Of a stretch of DNA of 64,000 bases, positions 61-7,853 are shown in pieces. The notes under the pieces are model-generated. The model was not told where the DNA came from. It did no database searches and saw nothing but the letters and a program-made list of their open reading frames with translations. How positions within the stretch are numbered: the first letter of the stretch is position 1; each line of letters starts with the position of its first letter. Origin of the DNA: Eubacteriales bacterium. GTDB taxonomy: Bacteria > Bacillota > Clostridia > Oscillospirales > CAG-272. Position numbers and translations under genes: made by a program. The DNA is taken from positions 12,906 to 76,905 of the forward strand of contig JAZTYY010000005.1 of assembly GCA_045637205.1 (NCBI GenBank). Direction: 5' to 3'.

Positions 61-137
61 GGCGGGATAGCTCAGTTGGCTAGAGCAATCGGTTCATACC
101 CGATAGGTCATGGGTTCAAGTCCAATTCCCGCTACCA
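61..137 (+). tRNA. tRNA with CAU anticodon (Met; a lysidine-type Ile2 cannot be excluded)
   Basis: Cloverleaf folded by eye: acceptor GGCGGGA/TCCCGCT, anticodon arm ATCGG-TTCATAC-CCGAT, T-loop TTCAAGT, encoded CCA. Confidence 0.85.
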
Positions 138-141
138 TTCT

Positions 142-216
142 GGCCCGTTGGTCAAGCGGTTAAGACACGGCCCTTTCACGGCTGTAACATGGGTTCGATT
201 CCCGTACGGGTCACCA
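142..216 (+). tRNA. tRNA-Glu (UUC)
   Basis: Acceptor GGCCCGT/ACGGGTC, anticodon arm CGGCC-CTTTCAC-GGCTG (anticodon TTC), T-arm ATGGG-TTCGATT-CCCGT, encoded CCA. Confidence 0.92.
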
Positions 217-269: not shown

Positions 270-302
270 TTTCTTAGAAGAAGTTAAAAAGTATTAAAAA
301 TA

Positions 303-334
303 GCGGACGGAGTTTTCTCCGTCCGCCATTTTTT
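303..334 (+). terminator. rho-independent terminator
   Basis: Perfect 10-bp stem GCGGACGGAG-TTTT-CTCCGTCCGC followed by CATTTTTT. Confidence 0.7.
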
Positions 335-398: not shown

Positions 399-427
399 TG
401 GAAATATTTTCAGATTTGTGATATAAT
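399..427 (+). promoter_or_regulatory. candidate extended -10 promoter of ORF 559-4080
   Basis: TGATATAAT at 419-427, weak -35 TGGAAA at 399-404 (17-nt spacer). Confidence 0.35.
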
Positions 428-558
428 AAACACCAATCAAGTGTATTAAGTGTCTAATTTGCGACATGTTAACAATACAGATGTATGATATAGATCTGTT
501 ATAACGAGCAATAGTGATTAATTCGAGGTTATATTAAATTATATGTAGGAGAATATAA

Positions 559-3500
559 ATGACAAAAAAATCAAAGAAATATAAAGAAACCACAAAAACC
601 ACTGTATCCGCGCTGAGTAATCCTTTCTCTACTGGAGGCGGAGGAGTGGATTTTGAACATCGTGTTCAGGCCACATTCTTATTGGCATTGTTGGTAGAAG
701 GTTTTTCACCTTTGCTAAATCTGCCGATAACATCGGTGCTTTTTCAAGCTAAAAGATCAGGATATGATACGGACGATATTGTTTTATTTTCGTCTTCTGA
801 TACATATTCTGCAAAATTAATATGTCAAATCAAGCATGGGATAACTATTACCGAAAATAATAAAACATTTAAGGATGTAATTGCTTCTGCTTGGAGTGAT
901 TTTAATAAACCTACATTTAATAGGCAAACTGATAAAATTGTATTAATTACAGGAGCAGTCGCAAAATCCAATACATTGCGCTTCATATATGATCAAGCAA
1001 ATGGTGCGTTAGATGCAAATGATTTTATTAATAGAATATATAGTCCTGGATACTCTAATGATACCAATCGAGAAAAGCTGAATGCTATCAAATCTCTTTT
1101 GAAAAAGGCCCATAATGACCAGGATATTACTGATGAGCAACTGTGGGAATTCTGCAAGGTGTTTACAATTCTTGTTTTTGACTTGGATTATGAGAGTAGT
1201 GTAAATGAATTTCTCATTCACGCATTGATTGCTACAAATTGCAAGGATAACGCCATATCGGTGTGGGCTCAACTTGTTGATCATGCAGCGAGATGTGATA
1301 AAACGGCCGCTCATGTTTCATTAAATAACATTCCGGAGTATGTCAAGCAAAACTTTAAAAATTTATTGTCGATATCCGATTCTATGCCAGAACCTCTTGA
1401 TTTTGAAATTGATTCTATCTGGGCAAAATTAGCTTTAATGGGATCTTGGAATGAAAAAAATGATTTTGATAAGAATTTAGTAGAGTCATTTTTAGGAAAA
1501 AGTTATTCAGAAATCCAAAAAATCATACAAGAGAATTCTTTGCAGCCAAACCCAAACGCTTCTTTTTCGCAGGGGTTATGGCACATCAACCATAGACGAT
1601 CAATTGTCAAAATTTGTTCAAAATTTTATTTTGAAAACGATGTCAAGAAATTCTTTGAAATCTCCCAAGAGGTTCTTAAAGAAAAAGATAAACGAATTCA
1701 AGATAATGGAGATTTTAGTTTGTTAGTTCCAGAATCTGGACCATTTGTACATTCTGAAGCATTAAGAAATGGAATAATACAGGGCCTTGCGATGATTTGT
1801 AATCTGTCTGGAACACAATTGTCGTGTTCTGCAGAAACAATTAATTTTGAAGCTATAATGTTGATTCGCAATTTGTTCGATGAATCGAACAGTTCGACAT
1901 GGATAAGTTTAGATTCACATCTGCCTACTGTTGCTGAAATTCACCCAACAGAATATTTATCTTGTTTGGAGAGACAAATTATTAATACCCCTCAAAATAT
2001 AGAATCTTTATTTCCAAAGAATGGCGATAATTTGTTGTTTTCCAGAAATTTTATTTGCTCAATATTGTGGTCTTTGGAAGGCTTGGCGTGGGATGAAAAA
2101 TATTTTGTGAAATGTATTAGAATATTAGGACAAATATCAAAATTAAAATTTGACAAAACCAATTCATCCAACACACCAATTAATTCTATCATAAGCATCA
2201 TGCTTCCTTGGCATATACAGACTTTAGCAACTAAGGAAAAGCAGAAGAATGCAATTAAAGCATTACAACAAGAATGTCCGGATGTTGCTTGGATAGTAAT
2301 CAAAGGATTACTTCCACATGCTACACGCACCACAGGAGGCACACATCAGCCGAGATACATTATTTCCAATTTGCCTAAAGAAGTAAGAACTTCCAATGAA
2401 GATATTTTAAGTTTGTATCAATATTATTCGCATGTAGCTTTAGGCTTGGCTAAAGCTGATTATTGTAAAATGGTTGATTTGTTATCATATTACGATGATA
2501 TGGACCGTGATACAATCGTAGAGTATCTGTCTTTGATAACAGAACAGGCTGCAGGATGGGATGATTCAAAAAAATATCCATTTTGGAAGGAGCTTTCTAA
2601 TCAAAAAGAATGGTTGGTTCATAATACTGAGGATGAATTGGACGACTTTATGATGAAGTTGTTAGAGTCTACTATTGAAAAAGTTGATCCTACTGACATT
2701 AGGTATATATATAGAAGATTGTATGAACCAGGATATTTTGACTATGATGATGAAGGCGAATTTCAAACAAAATGGCAAGCTAAACGAAAAAAACAAGAAA
2801 CTGCAGTTTATGACATATATGTTTTGTACGGAATAGAGTCTGTAGTAGAATTCGCAAAAGAACTCAACAACGAAGGCTGGATTGCTCAAAACTTAGGTAA
2901 GCAACTAAGTGAAGAAGACATAAAATTGCTTTTAAAAATGTGTTATGAAACCAAGTTGAATAAGGAGTTTTTTGCATCAGTAATTTACGGATATATAATA
3001 ACTAATGATTATGATGCGATAACTCAAATGGAATTGGAAACATATAGTTTGGATTATATCTCTTGGGTGCTTTCTTGTCTTCGTCCTTCTATGCGTTTAT
3101 TTGAAATTGTCGAAGAATTGTTGAGTGAACAGAGCAATTTGTATTGGGATTCTATCATTATTCCGCGCTTTGGTTTGGATGATGATGTTGATTTGAACTA
3201 TGTGTGGAAAAAGTTGGTTGAGCAAAAACGATATACTGCTGCTATTAATCTTTTTGGTATTACCGCTGAAAATTGTAGTATATCTCATGATAAGCTACAA
3301 GAAGTATTAACCCAAGCAGCAATTACTGAAAGCAACGATAGGTTGGACTCTGATGCTGTTAGAAATTTAATTGAACTATTACAGCTGTCGAGAAGCATAA
3401 GCATAGAAGCAATTTCTAATGTGGAACTTATATATTTATCTTGGCTTGATGAATATTCCAAAGTAAAGCCATTAGCCTTGAGATATCGATTAGCAAATGA

Positions 3501-4080
3501 ACCAATGTTTTTCTGTGATTTGATAAGACTGTTCTACAAAAAAAGACATTCTGAAACACATGAAGAAAAAATATCCGAGCAGATGGCAAAAAGACTTTGG
3601 CAAATATTGCACAATTTCTGCGTAATTCCAGGAACAGACTGGGAGGGCAAATACAACGAAAACTGTTTTTGCCAATGGATTGATTATTGCAAGACTTGGG
3701 CTAAGGCAGAAGATCGAGAAGCTGTAGTGCAGCAAACTATCGGTAATGGCCTCTCATATGCACATAAACTCGAGAATGGTCTTATTGATGACTTTATTAT
3801 GAGAGAACTCAATAAGATTGAAAATGAAGAAATGCGCCGGGGATATAGAATAGGTATTTTCAATCAGCGAGGAGTTAGGTGGATTGATCCCGAGGGAAAA
3901 CCAGAATTCCAACTTGCCGAAAAATACAAAGATATGGCAGAATCTGCAGAATCTATAGGATATGCAAAATATGCAGAGATACTTCGTGTAATTTCAGATG
4001 ATTATATCAGTGAAGCAAAACACCACATTAGAGAACATCAACTTCAGCAAGAACTTCACAAAAGAGAAAATGACGACTAA
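559..4080 (+). CDS. large orphan protein, 1173 aa: PD-(D/E)xK-like N-terminal signature plus long helical-repeat body
   Basis: Uninterrupted 3.5-kb ORF, RBS AGGAG 7 nt upstream. N-terminal GGGGVDFEHRVQ ... YDTDDIVLF ... LICQIKHG. No Walker A, signal peptide or TM segment seen. Hairpin terminators on both sides. Confidence 0.85.
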   Translation: MTKKSKKYKETTKTTVSALSNPFSTGGGGVDFEHRVQATFLLALLVEGFSPLLNLPITSVLFQAKRSGYDTDDIVLFSSSDTYSAKLICQIKHGITITENNKTFKDVIASAWSDFNKPTFNRQTDKIVLITGAVAKSNTLRFIYDQANGALDANDFINRIYSPGYSNDTNREKLNAIKSLLKKAHNDQDITDEQLWEFCKVFTILVFDLDYESSVNEFLIHALIATNCKDNAISVWAQLVDHAARCDKTAAHVSLNNIPEYVKQNFKNLLSISDSMPEPLDFEIDSIWAKLALMGSWNEKNDFDKNLVESFLGKSYSEIQKIIQENSLQPNPNASFSQGLWHINHRRSIVKICSKFYFENDVKKFFEISQEVLKEKDKRIQDNGDFSLLVPESGPFVHSEALRNGIIQGLAMICNLSGTQLSCSAETINFEAIMLIRNLFDESNSSTWISLDSHLPTVAEIHPTEYLSCLERQIINTPQNIESLFPKNGDNLLFSRNFICSILWSLEGLAWDEKYFVKCIRILGQISKLKFDKTNSSNTPINSIISIMLPWHIQTLATKEKQKNAIKALQQECPDVAWIVIKGLLPHATRTTGGTHQPRYIISNLPKEVRTSNEDILSLYQYYSHVALGLAKADYCKMVDLLSYYDDMDRDTIVEYLSLITEQAAGWDDSKKYPFWKELSNQKEWLVHNTEDELDDFMMKLLESTIEKVDPTDIRYIYRRLYEPGYFDYDDEGEFQTKWQAKRKKQETAVYDIYVLYGIESVVEFAKELNNEGWIAQNLGKQLSEEDIKLLLKMCYETKLNKEFFASVIYGYIITNDYDAITQMELETYSLDYISWVLSCLRPSMRLFEIVEELLSEQSNLYWDSIIIPRFGLDDDVDLNYVWKKLVEQKRYTAAINLFGITAENCSISHDKLQEVLTQAAITESNDRLDSDAVRNLIELLQLSRSISIEAISNVELIYLSWLDEYSKVKPLALRYRLANEPMFFCDLIRLFYKKRHSETHEEKISEQMAKRLWQILHNFCVIPGTDWEGKYNENCFCQWIDYCKTWAKAEDREAVVQQTIGNGLSYAHKLENGLIDDFIMRELNKIENEEMRRGYRIGIFNQRGVRWIDPEGKPEFQLAEKYKDMAESAESIGYAKYAEILRVISDDYISEAKHHIREHQLQQELHKRENDD

Positions 4081-4129
4081 ATTAATTGCGTAATAATAAA
4101 CGTTGGCTATTTTTGAAGATAATAGAAAC

Positions 4130-4164
4130 AACGGACGGAGACATCTCCGTCCGTTATTTCTTTT
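4130..4164. terminator. bidirectional hairpin terminator between convergent genes
   Basis: AACGGACGGAG-ACAT-CTCCGTCCGTT then ATTTCTTTT; same 9-bp stem core as the hairpin at 303-326. Confidence 0.65.
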
Positions 4165-4253
4165 CGGAACATTCCGAGTAATCGTACGATTATGTTTTGT
4201 TATATATTAAATTATGATAGTTTTGTTTTAGGTGTTTTCATCTTAATTTTGTT

Positions 4254-4406
4254 TTATTGCTTTTCATTTTTGTTGCTTTCGTCACTTGCTTGTCTTTTCT
4301 CTTTTGAAAGTAAATACTCTCTGCATATCGGCAGAAGAATACGTGCAAGTGAATCAAGCTGATACTCAGAAATATCCAAATCATTATTTTGGATATTCTT
4401 TGCCAT
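4254..4406 (-). CDS. small hypothetical protein (50 aa) downstream of the integrase
   Basis: Hand translation MAKNIQNNDLDISEYQLDSLARILLPICREYLLSKEKRQASDESNKNEKQ; GGAGG about 13 nt upstream; below the ORF-track length cutoff. Confidence 0.3.
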   Translation of the reverse strand: MAKNIQNNDLDISEYQLDSLARILLPICREYLLSKEKRQASDESNKNEKQ

Positions 4407-4476
4407 AAAACAGTATTAACCTCCTTTCTTAGATGATTCTATATATATTATGATAGATTTGCCTTGAATTCTGCAA

Positions 4477-5517
4477 TCACCCCGAAATCGACGCCAAATA
4501 GTGATCCGCGACTATGCTCTCGCGATTATGTCCGAGGGCGCGAGATGCTTCAAAAAGTGCCTTGCGGTCATATGATGTGCCTTTTAGATCCTTGCGACAA
4601 TAATACGCGGAGCCCACGTCCCTGAAGCCCTTTAGCAATATTCTTTTGCCGTCTATTGTAGTGTAATAGTCCTCATTGCCTCTAATTAACTTTCTCCCGC
4701 TTTTTGACGTGTAGCTCTTGACTATCTCATTCTTGTATATGATTAATCTCTCATTCTTAAACTCATCGAGAGAGCGTTTGTAATCGTTGTATATGCGTGC
4801 TGCATATTCTCCCCTGTATGAGTGTATATCAGCATTTTCACTTGGGTTCGGGAATATCTTGTCCTCTCCTGACTTTTTACACAATTCAATTACAAACTTA
4901 ATCTCATTCTCATTACCAACGATAGGCGATATCCTTGTTCGTCCGCCCTTAGTGTTTTTTGTTATATGTAAAAAGTACTTTCCGTCTTTTTCTATAAGAT
5001 CATTTCCTCTTATTTGTGAAAGCTCTCCTCTGCGGAGTCCCGTGCATTTACAGAACATAATGAGATCAGCATTGTTCTTCTCACTAAAGTTTTTATCTCT
5101 TTCTGCTGTTCCTCTGCTTCTTGTGATATTACTTCTTTTTCTTTGTGGAGTGGTAATATCAAAATCTCTTGTACTGCAACCGTAAAGCTTTGCCAAAGCG
5201 CACGCCTCAAGTTTTATCGTATATGGAGATTGCCCTCTGTCTATTTCTGCCTGTATCCATTTTTCAACGAACAGTCTGCACTCTTCAAGAGTACGTACCT
5301 TATGACCAATGCGCTCATCAGCGGGTTGCTCCTTGCACCACTTGACGAAATAGCAGCAGTGCTTCAAATATGCTTTATACGTGGACCACGAATATATTTT
5401 CTCCGTGTGAGCATTTTTCAGCTTGGCTGCATATTTGCTCTCACCTATAGCAAGCTTGGAGTTAAGGTTTTCTTTCACTTGCTCTGTTAATGATTTTCTC
5501 GGTTTATTGTGTCCCAT
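4477..5517 (-). CDS. tyrosine-type site-specific recombinase / integrase
   Basis: 346 aa; catalytic-domain motifs TGLRRGEL (Arg I) and LGHNRESIVADHYL (His-x-x-Arg ... Tyr); N-terminal SAM-like core-binding region; RBS GGAGG. Confidence 0.9.
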   Translation of the reverse strand: MGHNKPRKSLTEQVKENLNSKLAIGESKYAAKLKNAHTEKIYSWSTYKAYLKHCCYFVKWCKEQPADERIGHKVRTLEECRLFVEKWIQAEIDRGQSPYTIKLEACALAKLYGCSTRDFDITTPQRKRSNITRSRGTAERDKNFSEKNNADLIMFCKCTGLRRGELSQIRGNDLIEKDGKYFLHITKNTKGGRTRISPIVGNENEIKFVIELCKKSGEDKIFPNPSENADIHSYRGEYAARIYNDYKRSLDEFKNERLIIYKNEIVKSYTSKSGRKLIRGNEDYYTTIDGKRILLKGFRDVGSAYYCRKDLKGTSYDRKALFEASRALGHNRESIVADHYLASISG

Positions 5518-5656
5518 ATTTACCTCCTTTCCTAAAATGACAATAGAAACCCGTAGGCACTTTTGAGTATATGTGCCCTCTATATGTATTAAATTATCCG
5601 TTAAAGCTAAGCATCCCCACCTGAATTATAGATGCGGCAGGCCATCTGTTTAGTCA

Positions 5657-5776
5657 CCCAATTTGTCGACAATCGTCGTTTTAAGAACCGATCCGCAAGG
5701 GTTTCTTGATTTTTTGCCCAATTTTGCCGCGATTGTCGTATTAAGAATCAATCCGCAAGGGCATTTTTAGATTTTG
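5657..5776. repeat. two imperfect 60-bp tandem repeats upstream of the integrase
   Basis: Unit A 5657-5716 and unit B 5717-5776 both read CCCAATTT(T)G..CGTCGT(T/A)TTAAGAA(C/T)C(G/A)ATCCGCAAGGG...GATTTT. Confidence 0.7.
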
Positions 5777-6100
5777 GCGCGTTATTTTACAGCCACGCGC
5801 CACGGCTGTTTGCGATTTTTCGAGGGGTCGCAAAACCCACAAAGATTTTCCCGTTTACTCGATTGTTTCACCACGAGTAACCGTAAAATCTCTCTTTTTT
5901 CTCTTTCATTTTGTTCTTTCAATTTCTCATTCTTTTGTTTCCTCCATTATTCTATCCGTATTTGCTTTCATAATTAAAGCGAAAGCGGTTTTTCTTTTAC
6001 TCCAATATTGTATATAGCTTCTACTATATATGGTGCAATATGGCAGTGCTCCGTAAACGGAGAGAAATGAAAGAGTGATGAGGGAAGAAAAAAGAGAGCA

Positions 6101-6138
6101 AAAACCTCCCTCAGCACTTAAATGCTGAGGGAGGTTTT
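6101..6138 (-). terminator. rho-independent terminator (minus strand)
   Basis: 16-bp perfect stem AAAACCTCCCTCAGCA / TGCTGAGGGAGGTTTT; on the minus strand followed by TTGCTCTCTTTTTT; lies just after the pseudogene stop. Confidence 0.7.
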
Positions 6139-6149
6139 GCTGTACCCTA

Positions 6150-6666
6150 TTAATTTGGTTCTTCTGACTCATCGCAATCTCTGATCAAATAATAGTTCAA
6201 ATTATCTGGATCATCATATCCTTCCCAATCGCCTTGAGCAAGGGAAAGAAAATCAGAATCAAAAAGAAGGAAAATCTACAATCGTTTACTCGATATACTC
6301 GAGTCTTGCATGTGTGATCTTCTTCATAGAATCTTGCCATAAAAGATATGGCTTCCTTGACATTCTGAAAACTTTGCATAAAACCACTATCTTTCATATC
6401 AAAGACAGCGTAAGAGTCCTCATTAAGATGAAGCTTTTTAATACATCTTCTGAAAACTCGGACAAAAACGTATCTCCGTTCCATTCTCGAGTAAGTATTA
6501 CTCTATCCATAGAACTCAAATTCTTGCCATACATATCTACCTCTAAATGATTATAGGGACATTAAAGTAAAGTTCTGTCATCCTCTAAATTGAACTGAGG
6601 CAAAGCTCCACAGCAAGGGCATACATTGGTTTTAATTTTAACCAATTTGATTTTTTTTGTATACAT
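6150..6666 (-). pseudogene. decayed gene (one in-frame stop plus at least two frameshifts), product unknown
   Basis: ATG 6666 with RBS AGGAGG gives MYTKKIKLVKIKTNVCPCCG...LL*. Protein-like segments continue in shifted frames (..EFSEDVLKSF / HLNEDSYAVFDMKDSGFMQSFQNVKEAISFMARFYEEDH / LAQGDWEGYDDPDNLNYYLIRDCDESEEPN*). Confidence 0.4.
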
Positions 6667-7033
6667 ATCTGTATACCTCCTATGTTATTTTTTGAGATAT
6701 TATTTCGTTTTGTATTCTCCAACACTCAATAACTCTCCATTACTGTTATGCAAGATGAAAACTAAAATAAGATAACGAAATTCTAAAAAACGACTGTTTT
6801 TTGAAAAATTTTTATTTTTTCTTGATTTTATTTTGAAATTTAACATTTTTTGATGTGGAATATCGCCATATAATAACATCGGCTGGATTTTGTTTTAGGC
6901 ATAACAGTATTCTAAAATTATGATAATATTTGACATTTTTTCAAAAAAATAACATAAATGGATAATTTAGTAATTATTTTATTAATCTTTTTCTACAAAA
7001 ACAAAATTATTATAAAAAAATTCATATTAGTTA

Positions 7034-7062
7034 TTGAATAATTGAAAAATTTGTGTTAGAAT
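7034..7062 (+). promoter_or_regulatory. promoter of the AraC-family regulator
   Basis: TTGAAT 7034-7039, 17-nt spacer, extended -10 TGTTAGAAT ending at 7062. Confidence 0.5.
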
Positions 7063-7082
7063 AGAGAAAAAGGAGGGATGAT

Positions 7083-7853
7083 ATGCAAAATTTTATATTT
7101 TACAACTATAGCCGACTGAATTCGGAAGAAATCAAGCACGAAGCTCACACCCACAACTCCTTTGAATTGATTTTCGTTTATGAAGCAACGGGCACCTATC
7201 ACGTTGAGGACAAGTATTATCAGATTAATTCCTACGACCTCATTATCACCCGCCCCGGTGTCCATCACTTCATAGATCTTAAGGCAAACACGAATTATGA
7301 AAGAATAAACATTCTTGTTGAATACAATAGCTCCCTTGCTTATCAGTTAAAAAAATACTGCAAACAGTTCGATATAATCAGCTGCAGAAACCTTGATAAT
7401 ATCGTGAGTGCTTTCGACAGAATGAAGGAATATCACGACAATTTAAGCAGTGAGGATTTTTCTCTTCTTCTCAATTCTTTAATAATCGAGATTGCAGTAA
7501 ACACTCAGTTTTTCACCAAAGATTACGCAAATACCCCCAAGAACATTTCTCCGACGATAAGCCAAGCACTTGACTATATCAATAAGCATCTGTTTGAAAT
7601 AGAAAACGTTCAAGAGATAAGCTCTGCTCTATTCATTTCAAAAAACTATTTGATTGCACTTTTCAAAGAAACGCTTGAGATCACTCCTATGAAGTATATC
7701 AACAACAAAAGATTGGTTATGGCGCAAAAGCGTCTTCTTAAAGGCGAAAAGCCAACCAAAATTTACGCGGAATGCGGTTTCAATAACTACGTAACATTTT
7801 ATAAAGCATACACAAATTATTTTGGACATCCCCCGTCGGATGATATAAACTAA
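7083..7853 (+). CDS. AraC-family transcriptional regulator (cupin-like sensor plus HTH)
   Basis: 256 aa; C-terminal AraC HTH ISSALFISKNYLIALFKE...MKYINNKRLVMAQKRLL...IYAECGFNNYVTFYKAYTNYFGHPPS; RBS AGGAGGG. Confidence 0.9.
   Translation: MQNFIFYNYSRLNSEEIKHEAHTHNSFELIFVYEATGTYHVEDKYYQINSYDLIITRPGVHHFIDLKANTNYERINILVEYNSSLAYQLKKYCKQFDIISCRNLDNIVSAFDRMKEYHDNLSSEDFSLLLNSLIIEIAVNTQFFTKDYANTPKNISPTISQALDYINKHLFEIENVQEISSALFISKNYLIALFKETLEITPMKYINNKRLVMAQKRLLKGEKPTKIYAECGFNNYVTFYKAYTNYFGHPPSDDIN

Follow-up and report, generated by a model that had tools for sequence, protein, structure and literature searches.

DSR2 and Vulcan recognise phage proteins without a nucleoside triphosphatase (NTPase) of the STAND type (signal transduction ATPases with numerous domains), and few families of this kind have been studied. 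DSR2 comprises a SIR2 domain, a helix-turn-helix (HTH) with a beta-hairpin, a helix bundle, HEAT repeats and a C-terminal domain; it is activated by the phage tail tube protein, which binds in the HEAT/C-terminal cavity (PMC11263360). Vulcan from E. roggenkampii (WP_050009967.1) joins a NIR/DUF4062 domain to C-terminal HEAT repeats. It protects E. coli, is abortive at high multiplicity of infection and has a small lambda protein as its trigger (10.64898/2026.09.04.749371). Nuclease heads of the Cap4 type occur in LmuA and in Avs3/Avs7, where they become active once oligomerisation gathers them; activation of the LmuA and Avs7 heads occurs by tetramerisation. PrrC-EcoprrI, Ronin and PARIS are abortive back-ups tied to type I restriction-modification (R-M) (10.1101/2023.04.06.535777). 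The gene considered here occupies positions 559 to 4080 on the forward strand of a 64,000-nucleotide stretch of DNA, called the window below, from an Eubacteriales bacterium (assembly GCA_045637205.1, contig JAZTYY010000005.1, positions 12,906 to 76,905). Its product is predicted to be a self-contained, NTPase-free anti-phage sensor-effector with a Cap4-type DNase, a reading to which a probability of roughly 0.7 is assigned.

The open reading frame (ORF) is real. It encodes 1173 amino acids (aa) from an ATG start, arranged as a predicted Cap4-type nuclease head, an adaptor/winged-helix unit and a HEAT-like body. A preliminary description of the window had proposed a single-gene defence or abortive-infection effector, a proposal now strongly supported by comparison. 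The computed basis comprises the fold of the head with its conserved residues, a solenoid devoid of an NTPase, the swapping of heads, a context of defence islands and of R-M or bacteriophage exclusion (BREX) operons, and the lack of a conserved partner. Since immune heads are swappable, family members are embedded in R-M and BREX operons and no partner gene is conserved, an anti-phage sensor-effector is favoured. From context and modularity we strongly infer a role in defence.

Residues 1 to ~270 are predicted to adopt a Cap4-type PD-(D/E)xK nuclease fold, supported by AlphaFold2 (AF2) modelling, Foldseek, PADLOC and tblastn. The head (residues ~20-270; 616..1368, forward strand) contains the PD-(D/E)xK core and a helical subdomain. 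In an AF2 model of residues 1-290, with a predicted local distance difference test (pLDDT) value of 85.7 and a predicted template modelling score (pTM) of 0.79, the core follows the order alpha-beta-beta-beta-alpha-beta (helix 28-45; strands 56-62, 74-80 and 83-92; helix 102-115; strand 126-131). E33, a putative metal-binding residue in the motif FEHRVQA starting at residue 32 (codon 655..657), is placed on helix 1. The putative catalytic aspartates D72 and D73 (772..777), part of DTDDI starting at residue 70, open beta-2. Q90-I-K92 (826..834), the (D/E)xK equivalent in CQIKHG starting at residue 89, lies on beta-3. Conservation was counted in 115 full-length homologues. E33, D72 and K92 are kept in 114/115, D73 and Q90 in 115/115. 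Glycines G26, G28 and G29 of the glycine-rich loop STGGGG (24-29) are present in 114 of the sequences, Q37 in 112, and P51, Q63, W112, D125 and D208 in all 115. Ligands for the metal might come from E33 and the two aspartates. The Cap4/Mrr-like signature recognised in the preliminary description, with E33, D72/D73 and Q90-x-K92 at these positions, is borne out by the modelled core, the structural matches and the near-invariant residues.

A Foldseek search of the head against the PDB retrieved LmuA of Lamassu (9hr5, E=3.7e-6), the nuclease domain of Avs3 (8dgc, E=2.6e-5), HamA of Hachiman (E=3e-4) and Cap4 (6wan/6wam, E~3e-4), all from anti-phage systems, and the top 28 matches belong exclusively to these four proteins. 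The alignments, of 230-270 columns, have moderate TM-scores of 0.4-0.5. The list includes 7yia, an entry of the K74A catalytic mutant of Cap4. A PDB sequence search with the head profile gave no match. The PADLOC model of the retron type VIII effector matches the head with E=3.7e-9 in the full protein and E=2.5e-10 for the head alone; it is matched by 15/25 family members, over the first ~180 of its 474 positions. This effector (PDLC02918, 'DUF626_VIII') has been described as a putative serine esterase (Mestre et al. 2020). By homology of these ~180 positions to the Cap4-like head, it may also bear a nuclease domain. In tblastn, the head aligns with the N-terminus of a 1735-aa Avs4-like protein from Azospirillum (E=4e-15), rated Avs4-like by PADLOC with E=1.4e-23. 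Since retron type VIII effectors and this Avs4-like STAND protein bear it too at the sequence level, the head is an effector module shared among defence proteins. The Azospirillum gene (L092, 5001-10208) is located on a plasmid of Azospirillum oryzae, its Cap4-like head is of the same 'STGGGG..FE' variant, and another very large ORF follows it.

The region behind the head starts with the adaptor helix (LxGxWxExNxxD) and a winged-helix-like unit with a beta-hairpin, assigned to residues 286-345 (1414..1593, forward strand) from AF2 secondary structure. An all-alpha, HEAT/ARM-like solenoid body follows in residues 346-1173 (1594..4077), as suggested by AF2, Foldseek and PHROG. The full-length AF2 model (pLDDT 82.7, pTM 0.67) has a low-confidence linker at 268-277 and is almost all helix after residue 286; it contains no beta-rich domain fit for a P-loop NTPase. 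The helical-repeat sensor or scaffold envisaged earlier fits this model and the HEAT/ARM matches. The 1173-aa protein has neither a Walker A motif nor a convincing transmembrane segment, as had been noted before for the part behind the head; the maximum Kyte-Doolittle mean over 19 aa is 1.61 and falls within the nuclease core. The body had been called rich in Leu, Glu, Lys and Asn. Its most frequent residues are L, E, I, S, K and D, and Asn ranks seventh at 5.5%.

Residues 291-1155 match PHROG 18693, a family of unassigned function (E=2.5e-63). Scanned as a whole against Pfam, NCBIfam and PHROG, the protein showed no named domain, and PDB sequence searches with the whole protein and with a body profile gave no match. 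The body is covered by no model of Pfam, NCBIfam or PADLOC-DB v2; a PADLOC run, one of the checks suggested in the preliminary description, is positive for the head and negative for the body. Two divergent body relatives matched the PADLOC model PD-Lambda-4_A (= Avs8) with E 1e-3 to 1e-4. The matches are confined to the helical region of the model and were therefore judged as repeat-level similarity, not homology. In an entropy profile, the nuclease core is most conserved, together with residues 481-600 (LWALExLAW...LPWxPQT) and 1091-1150 (NxRGxxWVDPxGKPE); residues 601-905 are least conserved.

The same body is combined with different heads. Head classes were obtained by clustering N-terminal regions with a hidden Markov model (HMM) of the Cap4-like head, drawn from the 150 best of 6359 body matches. 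Among the best 132 fused matches, 91 carry the Cap4-like head and 18 an unassigned type of ~380 aa; the rest is diverse. Other heads exceeding the curated Pfam cut-offs are SIR2_2, TIR_2 (twice), PNP_UDP_1, DUF4062, FRG, SLFN_AlbA_2 and GT4-conflict. PADLOC assigns alternative heads to the effectors of short prokaryotic Argonaute (pAgo)/SIR2, ThsA, ThsB, bSEFIR, the PNP of CBASS (cyclic oligonucleotide-based antiphage signalling system) and PDC-S15, and none of its models covers the body in these proteins. DUF4062 heads occur in P0178 (71 bits) and P0263. In PADLOC, the SIR2-headed P0141 matches models of pAgo-SIR2 and ThsA; none of its matches is DSR-named. P0120 possesses the same body behind an unrelated head, which is the second commonest type ('...GQPGYDG...SYWEIG...'), shared by P0165 and 16 others and found at L005 (5535-9353) and L111 (3894-7712). 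This ~380-aa head has no Pfam, PADLOC or PDB sequence match and may represent an undescribed effector domain.

In several genomes, the body is encoded alone (~860 aa) after a separate head gene, whose stop codon overlaps the start codon of the body gene. One such upstream gene encodes a protein kinase of the PD-T4-6 type (E=5e-71; Pfam Pkinase 54.6 bits), another a 214-aa protein with an Rx4H motif ('RNExYH'), for which a PDB sequence search was without match. From this motif, read by eye, the latter might be HEPN-like, a weak and unconfirmed assignment; a second HEPN head is also only weakly indicated, as DUF4145 stays below the Pfam cut-off. At L080 (7980-8942 and the next ORF) and L087 (7980-8945 and the next ORF), the Cap4-like head itself is a separate gene; at L080, the head comprises 320 aa and the body 863 aa. 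Two-gene variants are also present at L081 (7301-7945 and 7935-10517), L082 and L075 (6992-7975 and 7959-10556), the last with the kinase head. The split always falls just after the LxGxWxExNxxD helix, which suggests that the head docks to the body via this helix. All heads, fused or separate, end in it. In hhalign, the match of an HTH-headed plasmid relative begins at the LxGxWxExNxxD junction (probability 100%, E=3.7e-55), and the junction behaves as a universal head-body adaptor. The distant body relatives on plasmids are ~1370 aa long: L090 (152-4264, Shewanella pS19502) and L091 (4570-8688, Rhizobium pPR4). Both carry a HigA/XRE-type HTH at residues ~7-90 and are hence annotated as HigA antitoxin or HTH regulator; ~370 unassigned residues separate the HTH from the body. 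A gene for a hypothetical protein of 1281 aa follows the Rhizobium gene.

The gene had been regarded as an orphan, a view that is overturned by hundreds of full-length homologues. A word-indexed search found 149 relatives in Firmicutes, Gammaproteobacteria and many metagenomes, mostly complete proteins of 1150-1200 aa; all named copies among the matches are labelled 'hypothetical protein'. A scan of one genome per species detected a relative in at least 592 species genomes, mostly at 27-31% identity. These belong to Firmicutes, Proteobacteria, Planctomycetota, Chloroflexota, Cyanobacteria, Bacteroidota, bacteria of the candidate phyla radiation and several methanogens. Such a patchy spread across bacterial phyla and archaea is typical of horizontal transfer. 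In an exhaustive HMMER search, a body-only profile matched 6359 cluster representatives (50% identity) at E<=1e-3, of which 3564 reached E<=1e-30. The protein at L055, from an Eubacteriales metagenome-assembled genome, is 100% identical to the window protein.

Mobile elements carry the family as well. Members were detected on 17 viral or prophage contigs of IMG/VR and on conjugative plasmids; a tblastn search against the phage GenBank collection found no match. These locations, together with integrative islands and an integrative and conjugative element (ICE), would suit a nuclease that excludes rival elements or kills cells losing the element, and the HTH/HigA-like heads of the plasmid relatives recall addiction modules. 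However, no cognate antitoxin or immunity gene is conserved alongside. SIR2, TIR, PNP, DUF4062 and PD-T4-6 kinase effectors are hallmarks of anti-phage systems, as is the location within R-M and BREX operons, so that element competition or addiction is given little chance.

Genomic neighbourhoods were compared at 69 species loci by simple ORF calling, clustering of the ORFs and identification of recurring families via Pfam. No neighbour is common to most of the loci, hence the gene has no obligate partner. SMC-like, cyclase-like and reverse transcriptase (RT) families do not recur among the neighbours. In 14/69 loci the gene is part of a type I R-M locus, mostly in the order hsdS-[gene]-hsdR; the hsdS frame often overlaps and hsdR begins 3-24 nt downstream. 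One exception is located upstream of hsdM, another in a locus with the order hsdR-hsdM-hsdS. In five loci, the gene directly follows pglX in a BREX operon. In four of these, the fetched stretch also includes brxL, and in three of the four a gene of ~777 aa directly before it. Other loci are integrase-bearing or toxin-antitoxin islands with Fic, PemK, HEPN_AbiU2, BrnT/A, PIN/MazE, SLATT, UvrD and AAA genes, and an ICE. The preliminary description had called for such a survey, and it revealed defence and integrase contexts and no conserved housekeeping operon in the 69 loci.

The placement in R-M and BREX operons, with frames overlapping or nearly abutting in the hsdS/hsdR interval and directly behind pglX, raises the main alternative, a guard of restriction systems. 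The solenoid would bind type I R-M or BREX complexes, or sense Ocr, ArdA or Stp, and the nuclease would be freed once restriction is blocked, an anti-anti-restriction back-up with precedents in PrrC-EcoprrI, Ronin and PARIS. Against it, ~70% of the loci, including the window and L055, lack an adjacent hsd or BREX family among the recurring neighbours, the families covered by the Pfam scan. At L055, tRNAs and transporter-sized ORFs occur upstream and a recombinase downstream; neither this copy, judged from ORF coordinates, nor the window gene seems to be hsd-embedded. Moreover, L077, an R-M-embedded member, shares 90-91% identity with L036 and L038, both non-embedded, and 76% with L086 from a BREX operon. 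Embedded members form no clade, and their scatter fits a mobile cassette in defence hot spots better than an obligate partnership. RhuM and Schlafen/AlbA_2-HATPase_c_4 genes repeatedly occupy the intra-operon positions of the gene in R-M and BREX loci (L016, L018, L033, L060, L065, L073, L076, L089, L024 and L086), which suggests that accessory defence genes generally use these positions as cargo sites. A dedicated guard is accordingly considered rather unlikely. The favoured direct sensor and the guard could be combined if the cue were an anti-restriction protein. At L035 and L040, which between them stem from a Phycisphaerales and a cyanobacterial genome, two large genes (~970-985 aa and ~950-1120 aa) recur directly upstream and may constitute another cassette-hosting defence operon.

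A broader version of the guard is held to be similarly improbable. Here the ~880-aa body would be an undescribed NTPase-independent pattern-recognition scaffold, unrelated to the HEAT repeats of DSR2 and Vulcan, that serves as an effector-agnostic guard tied to R-M and BREX. With 6359 cluster representatives in bacteria and archaea, it would rank among the larger immune families still without a name. As parts of this joint and equally doubtful proposal, the adaptor helix would admit at least 10 effector types, in cis or as a separate gene, and the cue would be phage anti-restriction factors or restriction failure.

Several observations weigh against the NTPase-free sensor-effector. The window protein has no match to Pfam PF14130 (DUF4297) at E<=1, nor have 25 diverse heads. 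The invariant Gln at position 90 replaces the acidic residue and is a departure from classical (D/E)xK, so that the chemistry may differ. The body resembles CRM1, CAND1, MMS19, karyopherins and condensin Ycg1 in Foldseek at E~1e-4 with TM-scores of only 0.10-0.17; since these PDB matches are generic and indicate no specific relative, its role as a sensor is deduced from architecture. Residues 601-905, which might bind the target, are just moderately more variable than the rest. Finally, the HigA/XRE-type HTH heads of the distant plasmid relatives are not classical effectors. The glutamine and the DNA-binding HTH heads would also agree with a housekeeping or regulatory scaffold whose nuclease-like domain is degenerate and non-catalytic, for instance one that acts in the control of transcription or in DNA repair. 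This is very improbable: E33, D72, D73 and K92 are near-invariant, the patchy spread suggests horizontal transfer, the gene has a higher A+T content than its surroundings, and a conserved housekeeping context was absent from the 69 loci.

The following mechanism is proposed for the favoured sensor-effector. The head (~270 residues) would be the weapon, a DNA endonuclease of the Cap4 PD-(D/E)xK type, coupled by the adaptor helix and the winged-helix-like unit (~286-345), which could accept any head, to the remaining ~830 residues, the HEAT/ARM-like alpha-solenoid that would act as sensor. In the uninfected cell, the nuclease would be kept inactive. Upon infection, the solenoid would bind a phage-made cue, most likely a phage protein. 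A conformational change or self-association would then pair the nuclease heads, an activation presumed to be oligomeric, and the paired heads would cleave DNA, the presumed substrate, indiscriminately and thereby abort the infection.

In the window, the gene forms a monocistronic cassette, with tRNA genes on one side and a recombinase on the other. The tRNA-Met (61-137) and tRNA-Glu (142-216) genes on the forward strand (61..216; ARAGORN, Rfam) are a possible island insertion point. An ORF of 346 aa on the reverse strand (4477..5517) is tyrosine-recombinase-like and indicates a mobile-island context; its match to Pfam Phage_integrase is weak and under the curated cut-off (E=5.5e-4), and PHROG assigns it to integrases with E=5e-8. 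The flanking tRNAs and integrase named in the preliminary description are thus present. No R-M or BREX gene is visible beside the gene, the window contains no SMC-like LmuB gene, and no RT-like ORF flanks the gene; Rfam matches are tRNAs only. Apart from the recombinase-like ORF, positions 4081-7080 hold only short ORFs, followed by an AraC-type regulator (7083-7853), and the G+C content drops to 0.26 at 6501-7000. This region is consistent with a decayed island remnant. Attachment sites, sought within 9 kb as direct repeats of the tRNA 3' end, were not detected. Just upstream of the start of the recombinase-like ORF, two 60-nt units form a tandem direct repeat of 75% identity (5657-5776); the stretch contains no convincing ORF and no Rfam match.

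The expression signals described beforehand, an extended -10 promoter, a ribosome-binding site and strong hairpins on both sides, were all located. The promoter-like site (399..427, forward strand) consists of TGGAAA, a 17-nt spacer and TATAAT preceded by TG, with 10/12 consensus matches, and represents a pattern match alone. Direct reading places the ribosome-binding site AGGAG (547..551) 7 nt 5' of the ATG at 559. The upstream palindromic hairpin (296..333, stem CGGACGGAG) is terminator-like on both strands; the downstream one (4124..4161) has an identical stem and would serve as the terminator of the gene. Eight terminator-like sites were observed versus 1.5 expected. The gene is AT-rich, as claimed, with a G+C content of 0.344 versus 0.392 for the window, the third lowest among 121 windows of 3.5 kb. 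The two hairpins have in common a 9-bp stem (CGGACGGAG....CTCCGTCCG) and ~45 nt of similar flank, a pattern that occurs exactly twice in the 64 kb with 0 expected by chance. It recurs around the identical gene in L055 and is absent from every other locus, including L001 with an 85%-identical homologue, and is therefore a feature of the source genome, not of the family. The twin hairpins could be a duplicated bidirectional terminator or the ends of an inserted 3.8-kb cassette.

One scaffold and one adaptor helix with many heads make the family a natural experiment in modular immunity. The heads span nuclease, NADase (SIR2, TIR, DUF4062), PNP, kinase, FRG, AlbA_2 and glycosyltransferase types. 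Repeated insertion between hsdS and hsdR and behind pglX offers a testable link from restriction systems to abortive back-up immunity. Validation of the family would allow defence-annotation tools to detect it, also in bacteria of the human and animal gut, where it is currently overlooked.

Single proteins that combine an effector with a helical-repeat sensor are an already known kind of system. DSR2 (~1000 aa) is, like the window protein, the product of a single gene, and the model of the window protein runs in parallel order from head to winged-helix-like unit, solenoid and C-terminal helical domain. DSR2 differs by its SIR2 NADase head in place of a nuclease. Neither the window protein nor P0141 has a DSR-named PADLOC match, a PDB sequence match to DSR2 is lacking, and DSR2 is not in the top 50 Foldseek matches; the window protein is not DSR2, as no homologous body of the DSR2 type was found. 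Vulcan shares the single polypeptide with an N-terminal immune effector and a C-terminal HEAT-type repeat devoid of NTPase, and the body family of the window protein includes DUF4062-headed members. The heads are distinct, a NADase in Vulcan and a Cap4-type domain here, and the bodies were compared by description only.

Avs3/Avs7 (AVAST) resemble the window protein in the kind of nuclease (8dgc, E=2.6e-5), the N-terminal swappable effector and the C-terminal helical sensor. In contrast to them, the window protein lacks a STAND NTPase (no Walker A, no beta-rich domain and no nSTAND, NACHT or NB-ARC Pfam match), and its activation can therefore not be driven by ATP-dependent oligomerisation. Among known structures, that of LmuA (9hr5, E=3.7e-6) matches the head best, over 257 aligned columns, but LmuA requires the SMC-like LmuB and LmuC. 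Such neighbours are missing in the family, and C-terminal of the head the two proteins are unrelated. CBASS Cap4 has its catalytic Lys in the corresponding place and agrees in the nuclease fold, whereas the window protein has no SAVED match in Pfam or in the AF2 model and the family no recurring cyclase-like neighbour. The head's sole library match at the level of sequence, the retron type VIII effector, differs by its reverse transcriptase, which is not adjacent to the window gene. The window protein is accordingly no Avs, CBASS Cap4, Lamassu or retron effector. PrrC, Ronin and PARIS are comparable in the hsd-operon placement of ~20% of the family loci, but are unrelated proteins, and most family members, the window gene included, are not beside R-M genes. 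New with respect to the searched libraries and papers are the family, the adaptor junction, the nuclease-headed majority and the embedding in R-M and BREX operons.

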